A stretch of 64,000 bases of DNA from an uncultured Candidatus Saccharibacteria bacterium (GTDB taxonomy: Bacteria; Patescibacteriota; Minisyncoccia; Phycocordibacterales; PALSA-1337): the NCBI GenBank assembly GCA_964450345.1, contig CAYVEL010000001.1, positions 16,671 through 80,670 on the forward strand, given 5' to 3'. The notes under the pieces were generated by a model. That model searched no databases and was not told the DNA's origin. It was given only the letters and a program-made list of their open reading frames with translations. Position 1 is the first letter of the stretch, and every line of letters begins with the position of its first letter. Shown piece by piece: positions 31,421 to 64,000 of this stretch. The position numbers and the translations under genes are program-made.

Positions 31421-31670
31421 GTTTTATATCTATAATATCGAATCCTCCTTCTTTAATAGCCTCCATAATCTTATCTTTCTTTAAAATAACAGTATTTTTT
31501 TCAGCGCTTCTAATATTTAGGAGTGCTGTTTTTTGTTTTATGTTTATTTTGTCTGAATCTATATTTATCTTACAGATTTTTCTGAGAATAGCAGATAAAC
31601 CTATTCTGTTTATGTCAGCATCGTCTGTTATCTTCCTATACTTCTTTAGAAACCCCTCTATTTTCTGCAT
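31410..31670 (-). CDS. small protein downstream of dnaN, DUF721/DciA-like (tentative)
   Basis: 86 aa; LLNIRSAEKNTVILKKDKIMEAI...IIDIKL resembles DUF721 core; position after dnaN; start overlaps dnaN stop. Confidence 0.3.
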   Translation of the reverse strand: MQKIEGFLKKYRKITDDADINRIGLSAILRKICKINIDSDKINIKQKTALLNIRSAEKNTVILKKDKIMEAIKEGGFDIIDIKLSR

Positions 31671-32770
31671 TAGCGATTCATAGGCATTACCAAATAGAGA
31701 AAGCTAGTATCTCCATTACTTCTTAGGATAACAGGCCTCTGAGGTCCATTAAACGATAAATAGACACTGTCCGCATAAATAGATTGAAAAACATCTGATA
31801 AATATTTTTGATTGAAGTTCGCTGAGTAGTCCTCTCCTTCTACACTGGCACTTATTACGGTTTTATTCTCACCAACATCACTATTTTTTGTTGTCAGAGT
31901 AATTGTTTTATTTTTTACTGAAATAGATATGTTTGCTTGATTAAACTTATCTGTAAATAAAGTAGATACTTTTAAAGCATTTATCAAATCATGCTTTAGA
32001 GCCACAACTTCAGAAGATGTAGACTTCGGAATAATCTGTTTATAATCCGGGAATGAGCCGTTAATCAATCTTGAGACTAGATAAACACCTTCTTTTTCAA
32101 AGGTTATTTGGTTTTTATCAAAAGAAATATTAATATCCTGGTTTCCATTATCAAAAACCTTTATTATTTCGGGAACATTTTTAAAAGGTATTAACAAAGA
32201 AAGCTCTCCTTCTATGTCCACTGCCTTAAATCTCTTTTCTGATAATCTAAATGAATCTGTAGCAACAAACACTATATCGTTCTGGTCTTTATATATATAA
32301 ACACTAGAAAGTTCTGGTTTTATAGATGAAACAGAAGCTGAAAACCATACTGACTTAAAGCCAAGTGTTAATTCTTTAGAATTTATCTTAAAAGATGATC
32401 CTTCTGTAATTCTAGGGATAGCTGGGTAATCGTCTTTAGGATATGTCTTAATAACTGCATTGTTCTTATTTCCTTCTATTTTTAAATTACCATTATCTTC
32501 TTCTAGAATAATTGTTTTGTCGGCTGCTATACCTGATATATATGAATTAAAGATAGCTGAAGGAACTACCACCTCACCTTCTTTAATAACTTTTACTGGA
32601 ATATCGAGTTCTATTCCTATGTCTAGGTTTGTAGATTTAATCTTCAAAGAGTTTCCTGTCGCACTCAAATGTAAACCAGAGAGTATCGGTAGATTTAGAT
32701 TCTTACCGGTCATACGTTCACTTAGGCTAATCGCCTCTTGAAGTTTTTCTCTAACGCATTCGATTTTCAT
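31670..32770 (-). CDS. dnaN: DNA polymerase III beta sliding clamp
   Basis: 366 aa, MKIECVREKLQEAISLSERMTGKNLNLPILSGLHL N-terminus, three-domain length, downstream of dnaA. Confidence 0.9.
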   Translation of the reverse strand: MKIECVREKLQEAISLSERMTGKNLNLPILSGLHLSATGNSLKIKSTNLDIGIELDIPVKVIKEGEVVVPSAIFNSYISGIAADKTIILEEDNGNLKIEGNKNNAVIKTYPKDDYPAIPRITEGSSFKINSKELTLGFKSVWFSASVSSIKPELSSVYIYKDQNDIVFVATDSFRLSEKRFKAVDIEGELSLLIPFKNVPEIIKVFDNGNQDINISFDKNQITFEKEGVYLVSRLINGSFPDYKQIIPKSTSSEVVALKHDLINALKVSTLFTDKFNQANISISVKNKTITLTTKNSDVGENKTVISASVEGEDYSANFNQKYLSDVFQSIYADSVYLSFNGPQRPVILRSNGDTSFLYLVMPMNR

Positions 32771-33007
32771 ATTCTTTATATATAAGAGAATTATTTTTAA
32801 TTAATAGAAGTGTGGATATGTGGAGAACTTTTTATATCTTTATTTATTAAGGGTTTTTTCTTTATAAGTTTTTAACATTTTGTTGATAACTACTTTATAA
32901 AATTTGATAACTTTTGCTTTTTTGTTTTTATACACTTTTTATTAGTAGTTTTTCAGTAGGTTTTCCCATACTTTTCCACAAGGATTCTAACAGGTTACCA
33001 ACAGGTT
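32771..33007. promoter_or_regulatory. dnaA-dnaN intergenic AT-rich region with DnaA boxes (candidate oriC/DUE)
   Basis: TGTGGATAT at ~32811 and TTTTCCACA at ~32975 (1-mismatch DnaA boxes), long A/T tracts. Confidence 0.55.
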
Positions 33008-35751: not shown

Positions 35752-35771
35752 TTAAATAAGACTTAAAATAA

Positions 35772-35806
35772 TAAAACCCCACAAATTTGTGGGGTTTTAT
35801 TATTTT
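35772..35806. terminator. hairpin AAAACCCCACAAATTTGTGGGGTTTT (bidirectional)
   Basis: seen in sequence. Confidence 0.7.
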
Positions 35807-35814
35807 AGTTAAAT

Positions 35815-59442: not shown

Positions 59443-60378
59443 ATGTCGCAAAACATAGAAGAAATGAAGAAACAGTTCTTAGAGTATGTTGAAATAGAAA
59501 AAGGACGTAGTCTAAAAACTGTTGAAAACTATGAGCATTATCTATCTGTTTTCCTAGATTTCGCCAAGATTAAGAGTCCAGAACAGATTACCGACTCCCT
59601 ATTAAGAGAGTATAGATTGTGGCTTAATAGAAGAGAATCTGGTTCAAAAAAAGACGGCATTAAAGAAACTTTAAAAAGAAAGACTCAAAATTATTATCTT
59701 ATTGCTCTAAGGTCTTTTCTTAAATATATGTCAAAACGTGGCTTAAATACTATGCCTGGTGAGCGAATTGAACTCGCTAAGGTTCCTGAAAGATCACTAG
59801 ATTTGATATCTCTACCAGAATTGGGTCGTATAATTGCTGCCCCAGATACTTCTAATCTTAGAGGTTTAAGAGATAGAGCTATTTTAGAGACCTTATTTTC
59901 TACTGGTTTACGTGTTTCTGAATTATGTGGTTTACCTAGAGAGCTTGATTTAAGTCATGATGAATTCTCTGTTCGCGGTAAAGGCGATAAAATTAGAGTA
60001 GTGTTCATGTCAGAAGATGCTAAAACTGCCATAAAAGCTTATTTAGCTAAACGAGATGATATGGATGATGCAATGTTTGTTCAAATAAACAACAAAAAAC
60101 TGGCTGAAGATAAGGATAAAACACTCAGATTGACTCCTAGATCAGTAGAGAGAATAGTAAAATATTATGCAATCAAAGCGGGTGTTTCAAAAAAGGTCAC
60201 TCCCCACGTTCTTAGACATTCGTTTGCTACTGATTTGCTTAGAAACGGTGCGGATCTACGCTCGGTACAAATGTTACTAGGTCACGCTAATATCGGAACA
60301 ACGCAGATATATACACATATAACAGACAGTGAACTTAGAGACGTGCATAAGAAGTTTCACGGGAAAAGTAAGATTTAA
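59443..60378 (+). CDS. tyrosine site-specific recombinase, XerC/XerD-like
   Basis: N-terminal SAM-like domain; RHSFATDLLRNGADLRSVQMLLGHANIGTTQIYTH catalytic region. Confidence 0.8.
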   Translation: MSQNIEEMKKQFLEYVEIEKGRSLKTVENYEHYLSVFLDFAKIKSPEQITDSLLREYRLWLNRRESGSKKDGIKETLKRKTQNYYLIALRSFLKYMSKRGLNTMPGERIELAKVPERSLDLISLPELGRIIAAPDTSNLRGLRDRAILETLFSTGLRVSELCGLPRELDLSHDEFSVRGKGDKIRVVFMSEDAKTAIKAYLAKRDDMDDAMFVQINNKKLAEDKDKTLRLTPRSVERIVKYYAIKAGVSKKVTPHVLRHSFATDLLRNGADLRSVQMLLGHANIGTTQIYTHITDSELRDVHKKFHGKSKI

Positions 60379-60454: not shown

Positions 60455-61249
60455 ATGAAAATCATTTGTTGGAATGTTAACGGAATTCGCGCTTTGGTAA
60501 AAAAGGGCGCATTTGATTGGTTAATTAACGAATCTCCAGACATTTTCTGCTTTCAGGAGACCAAAGCCCATCCAGAACAATTAGACGATTCCGTTAAGAA
60601 TTTAGAAGGTTACACATCATATTTTGACCATTCTAAGGTAAAAAAGGGATATAGTGGTGTAGCCGTATATACTAAAAGTAAACCAGAAAAGGTGGAATAT
60701 GGTATGGGTATTCCAGAATTTGATGAAGAAGGACGTATGCTTGCTTTATTTTTTGGTGGCGATGCCTTCTCTGGTCAGATGAGTAGTCCATTTTTGTTTG
60801 TTAACTGTTACTTCCCCAATGGTGGCGGTGGTCCAGAAAGATTAGATTATAAAATGCGTTTTTATGATGCATTCCTAAAATATGTTGAAAAATATACACA
60901 AAAAGGTATTCCTGTTATATTTTGTGGTGATGTTAATACTGCTCATAAAGAAATCGACTTAGCTAGACCGAAAGAGAATGAAAAAAATACCGGCTTCTTG
61001 CCTATGGAAAGAGCCTGGATTGATGAAGTTGTTAAGCTTGGTTATGTAGATACATTTAGAAAATTTTATCCGAATTTAGAAAATAAATTTTCTTGGTGGG
61101 ATATGAAAACTTTTGCACGAGAAAGAAATGTTGGTTGGAGAATTGATTACTTTTTTGCAAATAAGTTTGCTATAGATAAAATAAAAAATGCAAAAATTCA
61201 CGAAAAGATTTTAGGAAGTGATCATTGCCCTATTTCTATAGATATATAA
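60455..61249 (+). CDS. xthA: exodeoxyribonuclease III / AP endonuclease
   Basis: MKIICWNVNGIRA...FCFQETK...C-terminal SDHCP. Confidence 0.9.
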   Translation: MKIICWNVNGIRALVKKGAFDWLINESPDIFCFQETKAHPEQLDDSVKNLEGYTSYFDHSKVKKGYSGVAVYTKSKPEKVEYGMGIPEFDEEGRMLALFFGGDAFSGQMSSPFLFVNCYFPNGGGGPERLDYKMRFYDAFLKYVEKYTQKGIPVIFCGDVNTAHKEIDLARPKENEKNTGFLPMERAWIDEVVKLGYVDTFRKFYPNLENKFSWWDMKTFARERNVGWRIDYFFANKFAIDKIKNAKIHEKILGSDHCPISIDI

Positions 61250-61263
61250 AATATGGCTTATAA

Positions 61264-61283
61264 TAAAGACTTTTATGTCTTTT
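61264..61283 (+). terminator. short hairpin AAAGACTTTTATGTCTTT + T-rich tail after xthA
   Basis: seen in sequence. Confidence 0.4.
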
Positions 61284-61293
61284 AAATAGTAAG

Positions 61294-61325
61294 AACAAAA
61301 TGTCCTTTATAAAGGACATTTTGTT
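61294..61325. repeat. 32-bp perfect palindrome AACAAAATGTCCTTTATAAAGGACATTTTGTT
   Basis: seen in sequence; followed by perfect DnaA box TTATCCACA (61333-61341) and two direct TGTCCTTTA copies (61346-61364). Confidence 0.8.
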
Positions 61326-61747
61326 TACAGAGTTATCCACATAATTGTCCTTTACATGTCCTTTATATAAAAATATAATTATCTGCAGGTAAGACGGATT
61401 AGTGACATGTGGTCACTGAGGATGTCTCAGATCTTTAAATAATTTTTTTGAGGGTTAGTGGTTATCCCTCAATCTCAGTTCTAAAAGATTCGAGCTCTCA
61501 AGCGAGAATCGATGTAGAGATCTGTTCGGCAAATTGGACACAATGGCTTTCCCAATAATATTTTTTTGAAAGACCAGAATAGTGTCTCACGAATAGATTC
61601 TCGTAGTTTGAATCGTCCTGATGTTTAGGCTTAAATGCTTTAACTGCCTGATTGCCAGGAGGATTCCTTGTAAGTTTGCTAGCCCTTGCTAGCTGTTAGT
61701 TTAGTTCTTTTGATCTTTTGTTCCTTGTTCTTTTTGTTTCGACGCGT

Positions 61748-61782
61748 AAGGCCCTTCGAGAAGAAGGGCCTTTGTTATTTCT
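61748..61782 (+). terminator. strong plus-strand terminator GGCCCTTCGAGAAGAAGGGCC + TTTGTTATTT
   Basis: 8-bp GC-rich stem with T-run only in plus orientation; no upstream ORF. Confidence 0.65.
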
Positions 61783-61838
61783 AATATTTATTAAGCAATA
61801 AGCTTTTACTATGAGGGGGTGATTTAATAGTAAAAACC

Positions 61839-63323
61839 TTATTTTACCTTGAATTTTCCACGTATTTTAGCTATTTCCTCCTCCTCTTTTTCTTGTTTTT
61901 TAGCTTTTCCCTTATCTGATAGTTCTTTTAGGGTAGTTATGTCTAATGTATTGAGTTTTAAAGCTTTTCCTTCCAGGTACTCTGCTGTATTAAGATTCGG
62001 ATCTTCTAAAACTTCTTCCATTAACGCATTAAGTATTAAGCCTATTTTTGGTCCAGGTGTTTCCCGTGTAACCTCCATTATTCGGGAACCATCGATTTTC
62101 AGCATACCTACAGTAACAGGTGCTCTTAAAGCTTCTTCTATCATTGATTGATATTTTCTGAACCTATATGGTTCTTCTTTCGGTCTTCCTGTTCCTATTC
62201 TGTCACAGATTCTTACATACATAAGGTCCCAAATGTTTTCACGCCCAACATTTGCAACCATTCTTCTTACCGCGGATAGGGTTATTTGTTCTGGATCAGA
62301 GAAAAACATGTGCCATCTTACTAGCTTTGTTACCTTTTCGATTGTTTTCACGGGAAACTTAAGTCTATCAAGGACTTTCTTTGTTACACGTGAACCAACA
62401 ACTTCGTGACCGAAAAACGTATTTTCTCCTGTTTCATGTGAAAATCTCTTTGTTTCTGGCTTTGATATATCGTGAAATAGGGCAGTAAGTCTTATTTCTA
62501 AGCTATATTCCTTATCAGCAGCGTGTTGGAGGCTCTTAAGTAGATGTTCCCATACGCTATAAATATGAGCTCCTTTTTGCGTAACACCTATACCGGTCTC
62601 TAGTTCTGGTATGAAATACTTAAGTAATCCTGTTTCATGTGAAAGAATAAGGCCGTCCATAGGTCTTGGTGACATTATTATCTTTATGAACTCGTCCCTT
62701 ATTCTCTCTGCTGAAATCTTTGAAATAAGGCTAGAATTAGCAATTATGGCCTTTTTTGTATCGATGTTTAACGTGAAACCAAGTTCAGACGAGAATCTGA
62801 TAGCTCTTAGCATTCTTAAGGCGTCTTCTCTGAACCTATCCTCTGCTTTTCCTACGGTTCTTATAGTTTTGTCCATTAGATCTTTTCTTCCGTTATATAG
62901 ATCAGTTATTTCCGCGCTATTGTCCTTTATAGAGAGCGCTAGCGCATTCATGGTAAAATCCCTTCGTCCAAGATCATCTTCCAGCTTATCGCTAAATTTG
63001 ACGTCTTTAGGGTGTCTATAATCTTCGTACTGACCTTCGATTCTGAATGGAGTTACTTCTACAATATTTTTTTCATTGTTTTCATCTACTACTCCGACTG
63101 TTCCAAAAGTATTTTCATAGAATGTTCTAGGGAATAGGGCTACTATTTGTTCAGGTGTTGCGCTAGTTGTAATATCCCAGTCTTTTGGTTCTCTTTTAAT
63201 TAAGACATCTCTAACACAACCACCTACTAAGTAAGCTTTATAGCCATTTTTCTCTAAAGTATTTAAAACCTTTATAGACAGTTCTGGTATTGTTATTTTA
63301 CGTCCAAAAAGATCGATTTCCAT
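61839..63323 (-). CDS. cca: CCA-adding enzyme / tRNA nucleotidyltransferase with HD domain
   Basis: LVGGCVRDVLI...DWDITT head domain, HD domain; start trimmed to MEIDLFGRK because upstream extension is translation of tRNA-Arg gene. Confidence 0.85.
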   Translation of the reverse strand: MEIDLFGRKITIPELSIKVLNTLEKNGYKAYLVGGCVRDVLIKREPKDWDITTSATPEQIVALFPRTFYENTFGTVGVVDENNEKNIVEVTPFRIEGQYEDYRHPKDVKFSDKLEDDLGRRDFTMNALALSIKDNSAEITDLYNGRKDLMDKTIRTVGKAEDRFREDALRMLRAIRFSSELGFTLNIDTKKAIIANSSLISKISAERIRDEFIKIIMSPRPMDGLILSHETGLLKYFIPELETGIGVTQKGAHIYSVWEHLLKSLQHAADKEYSLEIRLTALFHDISKPETKRFSHETGENTFFGHEVVGSRVTKKVLDRLKFPVKTIEKVTKLVRWHMFFSDPEQITLSAVRRMVANVGRENIWDLMYVRICDRIGTGRPKEEPYRFRKYQSMIEEALRAPVTVGMLKIDGSRIMEVTRETPGPKIGLILNALMEEVLEDPNLNTAEYLEGKALKLNTLDITTLKELSDKGKAKKQEKEEEEIAKIRGKFKVK

Positions 63324-63354
63324 TGATTTTATTGTTATTTTAAGGGTTAAATTG

Positions 63355-63427
63355 TGCGCCCGGCAGGACTTGAACCTACAACCCCTTGGTCCGAAGCCAA
63401 GTGCTCTATCCATTGAGCCACGGGCGC
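63355..63427 (-). tRNA. tRNA-Arg (anticodon TCG)
   Basis: GCGCCCG acceptor, D-arm GCTC-AATGGATA-GAGC, anticodon stem CTTGG/CCAAG with loop CTTCGGA, T-loop GGTTCAAGTCC, CGGGCGC-A. Confidence 0.85.
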
Positions 63428-63623
63428 TTAATTAGAATAATAGCTTGATTTATTGTTTTTTTCTAGTGTAATTTTGTTTTGAGATACTACTCTTTTATAT
63501 TTAAAAATATGTTTAAGGTAAAATTTTGCCCAATAAAGTTTGCATTTGCTATTGTTTTGGTGCATAATATTCGGAGCCAGATTCTACTTTTGTAAGTTTG
63601 ATTTGGTTATATGTTAGATATAA

Positions 63624-63694
63624 GCGGGTATGGTTTAGTGGTAGCATGCGTCCTTGCCAAGGACGAGGTGGGAGTTCGATTCTCCCTACCCGCA
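63624..63694 (+). tRNA. tRNA-Gly (anticodon GCC)
   Basis: GCGGGTA acceptor, anticodon stem CGTCC/GGACG loop TTGCCAA, T-arm GGGAG-TTCGATT-CTCCC, TACCCGC-A. Confidence 0.85.
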
Positions 63695-63923
63695 CATTAT
63701 TTTGTTCGATAGTTTGGAATATTTCTTTTTCTTTATTAAACTCATTCTTTTGATTGTTTGAGTGGTTGTTTTTGTCTTAAACAAACCTTATCAGACCTAA
63801 GTTATACAAGTCTGGTCTTTGATATTGTTTTAAATAAAATACAATGTCTTTGAATTTATTTGAGCTAACAGGGAGGCTTCTGTCTAATTGAAAACTATAT
63901 TTTTCAACATTATTATGAATAAC

Positions 63924-63976
63924 TGTGGATAACTATGGGGATATTGTTTATAAAGGACATATTTTTATAAAGGAAA
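63924..63976. promoter_or_regulatory. perfect DnaA box TGTGGATAA plus ATAAAGGACA motifs (same motif family as 61294-61364)
   Basis: seen in sequence. Confidence 0.4.
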
Positions 63977-64000
63977 CTCAATTAGACCTTGAAAAATAAG

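Follow-up and report, generated by a model that had tools for sequence, protein, structure and literature searches.

Several bacterial promoters are regulated by the replication initiator DnaA, including those of dnaA, mioC and nrdAB in Escherichia coli and of dnaA and sda in Bacillus subtilis, and in other systems a second regulator has sites placed among the DnaA boxes: CtrA at the Caulobacter origin Cori, Spo0A with its 0A-boxes (TGTCGAA) at B. subtilis oriC, MtrA in Mycobacterium tuberculosis, HP1021 in Helicobacter pylori, and AdpA in Streptomyces. Clusters of DnaA boxes also occur away from origins, as at datA and DARS in E. coli and at the DnaA-box clusters of B. subtilis, and chromosome-organising motifs can lie inside genes, for example the RefZ-binding motifs of B. 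subtilis. Regulators of the OmpR/PhoB family bind direct repeats, such as the Pho box (CTGTCAT-N4-CTGTCAT), the WalR site (TGTWAH-N5-TGTWAH), and the sites of ArcA. Bacteria of the candidate phyla radiation are almost entirely uncultivated, and to our knowledge neither a cis-regulatory module nor a transcription-factor site has been characterised in Parcubacteria. Here we describe a composite site in a 64,000-nt stretch (referred to as the window) of contig CAYVEL010000001.1 from an uncultured bacterium, in which a consensus DnaA box and copies of a 9-bp motif, TGTCCTTTA (the 9-mer), are arranged over a predicted promoter between the exonuclease III gene xth and cca.

In the reading that we somewhat prefer, positions 61294–61379 would constitute the promoter-operator of a conserved, unclassified non-coding RNA (ncRNA) gene lying between xth and cca. 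The original prediction offered three explanations for the motifs, namely a DnaA-titrating or regulatory locus, the operator of a regulator that controls a candidate ncRNA, or recombination sites, and the operator is the best fit of the three, with 9-mers overlapping both the -35 hexamer and the spacer of a conserved promoter. The arrangement resembles the DnaA-regulated promoters above in having a consensus box just upstream of or within a sigma-70 promoter, such that initiator status could feed into transcription, and it resembles mioC in being an origin-proximal promoter. It differs in that the box is locked 3–4 bp from an array of a second conserved motif, the 9-mer, the product is an unclassified ncRNA, and the host belongs to the uncultivated Parcubacteria-group of the candidate phyla radiation (Patescibacteria); DnaA binding is predicted here.

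DnaA boxes and 9-mers at a predicted promoter

Exact copies of the 9-mer are present six times in the 64 kb where 0.95 are expected, a count reached in none of 100 shuffled sequences, and all six are confined to 61301–63959. One-mismatch variants are at background (26 versus 25.7 expected in the window) and the exact copies all fall within 2.7 kb, and we therefore rejected the idea of a motif that is common throughout the genome. The window contains two exact DnaA boxes, one in the cluster at 61294–61379 (the left cluster) and one in the cluster at 63924–63976 (the right cluster), and each lies beside a 9-mer. Chance, or noise in AT-rich sequence, is excluded as the source of the clusters by the shuffles and by the conservation described below.

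The coordinates of these features are collected in Table 1. The perfect 32-bp palindrome, the consensus box followed by tandem 9-mers, and the second cluster with its oppositely oriented box were all correctly described in the original prediction, apart from the gap between palindrome and box, which is 7 nt rather than 8 nt. That prediction did not include the TGTCTTTTA variant at 61276, the exact and one-mismatch copies in cca, the -35 and -10 hexamers, or the two degenerate DnaA boxes of the right cluster. The centre of the palindrome consists of two abutting inverted 9-mers at 61301–61309 (+ strand) and 61310–61318 (- strand), flanked by ACAAAA and TTTTGT, and the window has just one other perfect palindrome of at least 32 nt without a spacer, a 44-mer at 35764–35807. 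The TTTACA-17-TATAAT promoter matches 11 of 12 consensus positions and is the top match in a consensus scan of 61000–64000, and an intrinsic terminator is found about 370 nt 3' of it on the same strand.

Relative to the predicted transcription start the palindrome is at about -92 to -61, and it is likely an upstream operator pair. In this genome it is also a plausible intrinsic terminator for xth, with a 9-bp core stem (TGTCCTTTA/TAAAGGACA) followed by TTTTGTTT on the + strand; the terminator scanner made a call on the - strand only, and the T-tract is not conserved, being absent from locus L005 for example. Four short Logan contigs that carry the exact xth of the window (L001–L004) stop either 37 or 74 nt past the xth stop, at positions immediately preceding or within the palindrome, as might be expected if the palindrome had broken the assembly graph. 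The population occurs in samples SRR10083311, SRR10083249, SRR10083250 and SRR10083298.

Table 1. Features of the window discussed in the text, with positions counted from its first nucleotide
Feature	Position	Strand	Remarks
XerC-like tyrosine recombinase gene	59443–60378	+	
xth (exonuclease III)	60455–61249	+	
9-mer variant TGTCTTTTA	61276–61284	+	C-to-T change; common in relatives as TGTCYTTTA
Perfect 32-bp palindrome AACAAAATGTCCTTTATAAAGGACATTTTGTT	61294–61325		From sequence reading and repeat finder
Consensus DnaA box TTATCCACA	61333–61341	+	9/9 match; about -53 to -45 from the predicted start
9-mer copy 1 TGTCCTTTA	61346–61354	+	3' half plus next CA forms the -35 hexamer TTTACA
9-mer copy 2 TGTCCTTTA	61357–61365	+	In promoter spacer; 11 bp start-to-start from copy 1
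Sigma-70-type promoter	61351–61379	+	-35 TTTACA 61351–61356; 17-nt spacer; -10 TATAAT 61374–61379
Predicted non-coding transcript, ~400 nt	61386–61785	+	5' end predicted; carries CUGAGGAU motif and G(U/A)UCUUU boxes
Intrinsic terminator of ncRNA	61748–61782	+	10-bp stem 61748–61772, 6 G-C pairs, T-rich tail
cca	61839–63323	-	
One-mismatch 9-mer TGTCCATTA in cca	62870–62878	+	Antisense of cca
Exact 9-mer in cca	62921–62929	+	Antisense of cca
tRNA-Arg		-	Between cca and right cluster
tRNA-Gly		+	Between tRNA-Arg and right cluster
Three-box 'type B' array TGTCCTTTATAAACAATATCCCCATAGTTATCCACA	63924–63959	-	9-mer TGTCCTTTA overlaps three head-to-tail DnaA-like boxes
DnaA-like box TTATCCACA	63924–63932	-	
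DnaA-like box ATATCCCCA	63936–63944	-	
DnaA-like box TTATAAACA	63945–63953	-	
Degenerate 9-mer TTTCCTTTA	63968–63976	-	Cluster cut by window end at 64000
dnaN	31670–32770	-	
dnaA	33008–34513	-	

Conservation and spacing of the module

The 9-mer and the exact box recur together in 80 cca-anchored loci from other species, both upstream and downstream of cca. In 1.25 Mb of relatives the 9-mer is found 245 times (14.8 expected) and the box 113 times (14.7 expected), and 48 of the boxes lie within 45 nt of a 9-mer. Metagenomes were scanned using a DNA pattern only (box, 1–5 nt, 9-mer, 1–9 nt, 9-mer), with no gene information, and at least 120 loci were recovered. Among the 120 matches listed, xth and/or cca adjoin the module in 111, with the module mostly 280–610 nt from cca; the nine without a detectable neighbour are mostly on short contigs, and those inspected show the same promoter, non-coding stretch, and terminator. 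The same pattern gave no match in viral contigs, and a phage or mobile origin of the module was rejected for lack of viral or mobile-element matches.

The spacing of the elements was examined in 118 distinct modules among the matches listed, with gap counts given for 105. The box and copy 1 are separated by 3–4 nt in 97 of the 105, and copies 1 and 2 by 2–3 nt, corresponding to a start-to-start period of 11–12 bp, in 90. CA directly follows copy 1, completing a -35 TTTACA, in 101 of the 118 modules, a TAnnnT -10 hexamer follows copy 2 in 112, and the spacer between the two hexamers is 16–18 nt in 106 of those 112. This fixed spacing strongly supports the earlier suggestion of a shared protein-binding motif next to DnaA boxes. 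Of the 118 modules, 68 have an inverted 9-mer no more than 40 nt upstream of the box, but just 13 have the full inverted pair of the window, which marks the long palindrome as an elaboration particular to this locus.

The orientation of the promoter-plus-ncRNA unit is not constant. Among the 120 loci listed from metagenomes at least 10 have it reversed between cca and xth, as it also is in some species-representative loci, for example L010 and L011 (the variants are L010, L011, L089, L103, L145, L164, L169, L170, L182, L191, L196 and L204). At L138 it is the segment from cca to yraN that is inverted. From these rearrangements we conclude that block boundaries have recombined during evolution.

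A predicted non-coding transcript downstream of the module

There is no open reading frame (ORF) of at least 40 amino acids in the ~460 nt between the left cluster and cca, and the 412-nt stretch from promoter to terminator (61384–61795) folds better than shuffled controls (z = -3.2). Rfam searches gave no match at E ≤ 1 either in the window or in 28 related loci, and a known RNA family was excluded for the downstream transcript on these grounds; RNase P RNA was detected elsewhere in L062, and the downstream RNA is therefore not RNase P. The bodies of the transcripts evolve fast, and blastn comparison of the ncRNA of the window with about 200 related loci gave no match. The features common to the ncRNA loci are a CNGAGGA motif, a terminator, and GTTCTTT boxes that are present on one strand only and concentrated at +15 to +75, and a 5' hairpin has compensatory changes between the window and L005. 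We infer that the downstream transcript is an unclassified ncRNA, with much stronger constraint on the promoter than on the RNA body.

In the window, four G(U/A)UCUUU boxes are arranged in tandem at 61703–61735, and in loci L005–L204 the ncRNA downstream of the module, between xth and cca, is about 250–420 nt long. The 5' domains are too heterogeneous for a single covariance model, and the alignment covered one subgroup (L110, L121, L133, L139 and others). It has long conserved blocks and a CUCCUUU-containing segment resembling an anti-Shine-Dalgarno sequence; by eye this segment occupies a loop, and the helix that closes the loop is nested within the terminator stem, whereas the automatic consensus fold gave three short helices and not that loop. 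The same subgroup has in the mid-region of the ncRNA GTTCCACGTGAAAGC, which matches 13 of 16 parS consensus positions and could either form a hairpin in the RNA or be a weak parS-like site in the DNA.

DnaA and a putative second factor

Domain IV of the DnaA encoded in the window aligns with the E. coli DnaA DNA-binding domain (1j1v) and with a full-length DnaA entry (8btg), and the recognition helix is kept as GGRDHTTVIH (pattern GGRDHTTVxH). With this canonical helix, the exact boxes are expected to be DnaA sites. Compared with the DnaA consensus, the 9-mer agrees at only three of nine positions in one orientation and five of nine in the other, and breaks positions that we take to be required by DnaA; a variant DnaA site was judged unlikely from these matches, and a separate 9-mer-binding protein, which we refer to as X, is more likely. 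The motif is used head-to-tail with a period of 11–12 bp, head-to-head with no gap, and 0–4 bp away from a DnaA box, and thus appears to behave like a monomer-sized unit.

Extra modules, each with a DnaA box, three TGTCNTTTA motifs, TATAAT, and a short leader hairpin, are present in L062 (positions 5806, 17536, 19310 and 20061), L083 (17137 and 19664) and L171 (3092). Those in L062 and L083 precede genes whose products have signal-peptide-like starts, and the one in L171 precedes an ORF resembling a membrane protein; one of the downstream products looks by eye like a peptidoglycan-binding domain. These positions upstream of genes make a small regulon of X outside this locus probable.

A plausible scheme for the left cluster is that polymerase carrying the primary sigma factor would transcribe from the TTTACA/TATAAT elements, initiating near 61386 and stopping at the terminator, while DnaA would bind to the consensus box, centred near -49. 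The two head-to-tail copies of TGTCCTTTA, if bound by X, would cover the -35 element and the spacer, and being 11 bp apart start-to-start they would lie roughly on one face of the helix; the inverted pair, some 30–50 bp further upstream, may stabilise X binding. Because the core hexamers are already near consensus, X is presumably a repressor that occludes the promoter, and DnaA positioned 3–4 bp from the first X site could modulate access, coupling RNA output to DnaA status. With the X/DnaA pairing at the right cluster and the X sites in cca, described below, the promoter may represent one end of a 2.7-kb binding domain near the origin.

Copies of the 9-mer within cca

Two of the 9-mer sites in the window, one exact and one with a single mismatch, are inside cca, and relatives have up to three exact TAAAGGACA copies on the cca sense strand, in two different reading frames. 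Copies in this sense number about 170, compared with three antisense. Codon usage was examined in 133 distinct cca genes. At the third site, Asp is encoded by GAC in 62 of 64 cases versus 39% gene-wide, and Lys by AAG in 55 of 80 versus 34% gene-wide; at the second site, 39 of the 40 genes that have Lys-Gly contain the exact 9-mer. As the synonymous codons used at the 9-mer sites are non-preferred ones, we interpret the bias as selection on the nucleotide word itself, and the embedded copies suggest that X sites matter beyond the promoter. The B. subtilis RefZ-binding motifs are similar in that site-like words are kept in the reading frame at conserved positions near the origin; the evidence here is codon bias.

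A 28-nt segment of the ncRNA (61697–61724) is 82% identical to the cca antisense strand at 62864–62891, which is the region of an embedded 9-mer. Repeats of similar quality occur elsewhere in the region.

The right cluster and its parS neighbour in relatives

On the + strand the right cluster reads TGTGGATAA at 63924–63932, TAAAGGACA at 63951–63959, and TAAAGGAAA at 63968–63976, with the 9-mer overlapping the first box of the array by 3 nt. The repeat finder identified the left and right clusters as inverted copies of one unit (I1 and I18). The array pattern is matched in 30 loci, in most of them upstream of cca, and in many relatives the first box is TTATACACA and the middle box follows nTAYCCMCA. 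In most of the relatives that have one, a canonical parS (TGTTTCACGTGAAACA) is positioned 65–165 nt beyond the array (about 130–165 nt in L007, L012, L015, L057, L059, L069, L079 and others), the parS core is upstream of cca in 30 of 53 loci, and the next gene after parS is of the YraN/UPF0102 nuclease family. In this window, parS and the yraN-family gene would lie just past base 64000. The right cluster is thus best regarded as a putative sister DnaA/X array, with parS beside it in relatives.

The right cluster is similar to datA, DARS, and the B. subtilis clusters in having one perfect and two degenerate boxes off the skew-defined oriC, about 31 kb away. It differs in having only three boxes, in the overlap with a 9-mer, and in its position beside parS in relatives.

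Position relative to the replication origin

The GC skew at third codon positions (GC3 skew) is negative for every gene from 0.7 to 32.8 kb, through dnaN, with a mean of about -0.27 up to 31.4 kb, and from dnaA (33.0 kb) to 63.4 kb it is positive or near zero for nearly all genes, with a mean of about +0.12. The best split is at 31–33 kb and corresponds to the dnaN-dnaA spacer. This spacer (32771–33007) contains four one-mismatch DnaA boxes, two of which (ATATCCACA and TTCTCCACA, 32811–32827, - strand) overlap by one base, and has AT-rich sequence before dnaN, and we consider it the likely oriC. No 9-mer is present in the spacer, or near dnaA in L066, the only relative with a near-complete dnaA in its locus. 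As the skew flips at dnaN-dnaA, the 9-mer locus, 28–31 kb away, is not the skew-defined origin, and the 33–64 kb stretch is all on one replichore (rightward). Every gene between 35.8 and 57.9 kb is on the - strand and would be head-on to replication from a dnaN-dnaA origin.

In relatives, GC3 skew changes from -0.12 to +0.04 across the right cluster (side effect +0.077, t = 8.6, 27 of 29 loci), a shift that is about 40% of the flip in the window and that fades with distance; it is suggestive only, because each locus has the same orthologous genes on either side of the site and the loci are not independent. At the right cluster of this genome there are three head-to-tail boxes but no change in the sign of the skew, and by eye no conserved unwinding element or DnaA-trio pattern was seen in the cluster, which is cut by the end of the window. 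A replication origin at this position is contradicted by the window's own skew and was rejected.

Alternative explanations

Several observations weigh against a simple promoter-operator. The combination of exact box and 9-mer was found downstream of cca in only 18 of 72 cca-anchored species representatives, using a strict exact match, and the transcription start and the ncRNA itself are predictions. Among the 38 window ORFs compared with Pfam there is no obvious candidate for X, only a YebC-family and a DksA-type protein having turned up. The layout of direct repeats spaced by 11 bp across the -35 is shared with PhoB/OmpR-type activators, and neither the 9-mers in cca nor the three-box array is explained by promoter control, which hints at a wider chromosomal role. 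The likeness to OmpR/PhoB boxes extends to the TGT(C) start of the repeats and to their placement about 7 nt upstream of the -10, and the period of 11–12 bp is the one found in 90 of 105 modules; however, the 9-mer has another sequence and occurs in inverted and abutting copies too, the near-consensus -35 argues against the need for an activator, and no response regulator is present among the 38 ORFs scanned.

Alternatively, the two clusters with the copies in cca could form a chromosomal replication or segregation element in place of a transcription switch. They could be the halves of a bipartite origin on either side of cca, or a DnaA-box cluster outside the origin, like datA or those of B. 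subtilis, that is coupled to parS, with X modulating the assembly of DnaA and the ncRNA promoter either incidental or serving transcriptional activation. We regard this as unlikely. Three head-to-tail boxes are a typical oligomerisation array, the two clusters are inverted copies of one unit, canonical parS is close to the array in relatives, and codon choice maintains the 9-mer in cca in a manner that promoter control leaves unexplained; in relatives, moreover, GC3 skew rises across the right cluster. Against these points, the window skew flips at 31–33 kb and puts both clusters on one replichore, the shift in relatives is about 40% as large, fades with distance, and is drawn from loci that are not independent, no conserved AT-rich unwinding element or DnaA-trio was seen by eye beside the boxes, and the left cluster has a precise promoter geometry. 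A related and similarly tentative proposal is that bacteria of the Parcubacteria-group (Paceibacteria-like) have a cca-centred nucleoprotein domain of about 2.5–3.8 kb, bounded by two inverted box/9-mer arrays, beside parS, and with further 9-mers written into cca by selection on synonymous codons, at which a lineage-specific protein would cooperate or compete with DnaA in replication initiation or origin segregation. Such a domain could be the origin itself in some members, and the conserved promoter and the fast-evolving ncRNA would then be part of that control. DnaA titration, as raised by the original prediction, or replication control may play a part at the right cluster and across the whole domain.

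Two further explanations are considerably less probable. Control of cca at the RNA level, through pairing of UGUCCUUUA in the xth 3' untranslated region (including the terminator hairpin) or of the GUUCUUU boxes of the ncRNA with the Shine-Dalgarno-like UAAAGGACA in cca mRNA, is improbable. It would account for the cca copies being almost all in the sense orientation and exact complements of the promoter-region 9-mers, the strand-specific GTTCTTT boxes could pair with AAAGGAC by way of one G-U pair, the palindrome of the window is followed by a U-tract, and the ncRNA segment at 61697–61724 is similar to the antisense of the cca site region. In 72 loci, however, duplexes predicted between ncRNA and cca are no better at the site region than elsewhere in cca. 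In no locus is the site region the best segment, and the median energy there (-31.1) is weaker than the median of the means for the other segments (-34.1); we rejected pairing between ncRNA and cca mRNA on this negative prediction. Moreover, the promoter 9-mers are upstream of the predicted start at fixed distances to the -35, the -10, and the DnaA box, the right cluster has the motif in the opposite sense and in intergenic DNA, and few modules have the palindrome. Less probable still, and in our view very doubtful, are sites for the neighbouring XerC-like recombinase, either as a dif-like 11-6-11 arrangement (CAAAATGTCCT TTATAA AGGACATTTTG) or as inverted repeats of an invertible 2.6-kb segment. 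Most loci agree in the side of the module on which the xerC-like gene lies, a 28-bp 11-6-11 reading of the palindrome is possible, inverted units of 14–20 nt flank 61.3–63.97 kb, and the orientation variants described above, including the locus with cca-yraN inverted, would be compatible with inversion. Yet the locus is 28–31 kb from the skew-defined origin and not at the terminus, the full palindrome is present in only 11% of modules (13 of 118) although the xerC-like gene is near the module in most loci, while the direct repeats and box are near-universal, dif sites are not known to recur within cca and next to DnaA boxes, and there are no viral or mobile-element matches. We also know of no resemblance between the palindrome and known dif consensus sequences, and recombination sites, the third of the explanations first offered, are not supported.

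Comparison with two-factor systems and implications

The promoter-operator that we favour has parallels in CtrA, Spo0A, MtrA, HP1021, and AdpA, for which second-factor sites abut or overlap DnaA boxes, as they do here with a gap of 0–4 nt on the left and an overlap of 3 nt on the right, and for which sites are also found at ordinary promoters, as at L062 and L083. The difference is that the sites in the window are not at the skew-defined origin and that the dnaA-dnaN spacer is without a 9-mer. Our literature searches on DnaA boxes with Parcubacteria and on the 9-mer found nothing relevant. Neither Rfam nor the literature that we searched contains this composite arrangement, although DnaA-linked cis-regulation with a second factor is known in kind.

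The composite site, about 90 bp long and with its spacing fixed within one or two bases, is present at more than 100 environmental loci and in genomes that bear many different candidate Parcubacteria-group names, and it would link the universal initiator DnaA, a putative second factor, and an unclassified ncRNA. The 9-mer module offers a probe for in-vitro fishing of the factor and a marker of the block xerC-xth-ncRNA-cca-tRNA-parS-yraN, which in this genome is ~30 kb from the skew-defined origin. The copies in cca provide a clear case of a DNA word maintained in a housekeeping gene by codon choice. If the wider cca-centred domain is real, replication or segregation in reduced genomes would be subject to a further, newly recognised level of control.

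Sequence relatives and other features

The cca protein of the window is not on record, and an exact 35-mer scan of metagenomes gave no match; the nearest cca homologue in species-representative genomes, from a 'Candidatus Taylorbacteria' assembly, is 67% identical. The second long palindrome of the window, the perfect 44-bp TAAAATAATAAAACCCCACAAATTTGTGGGGTTTTATTATTTTA, is positioned between convergent yidC and the next gene, and looks like a bidirectional terminator.

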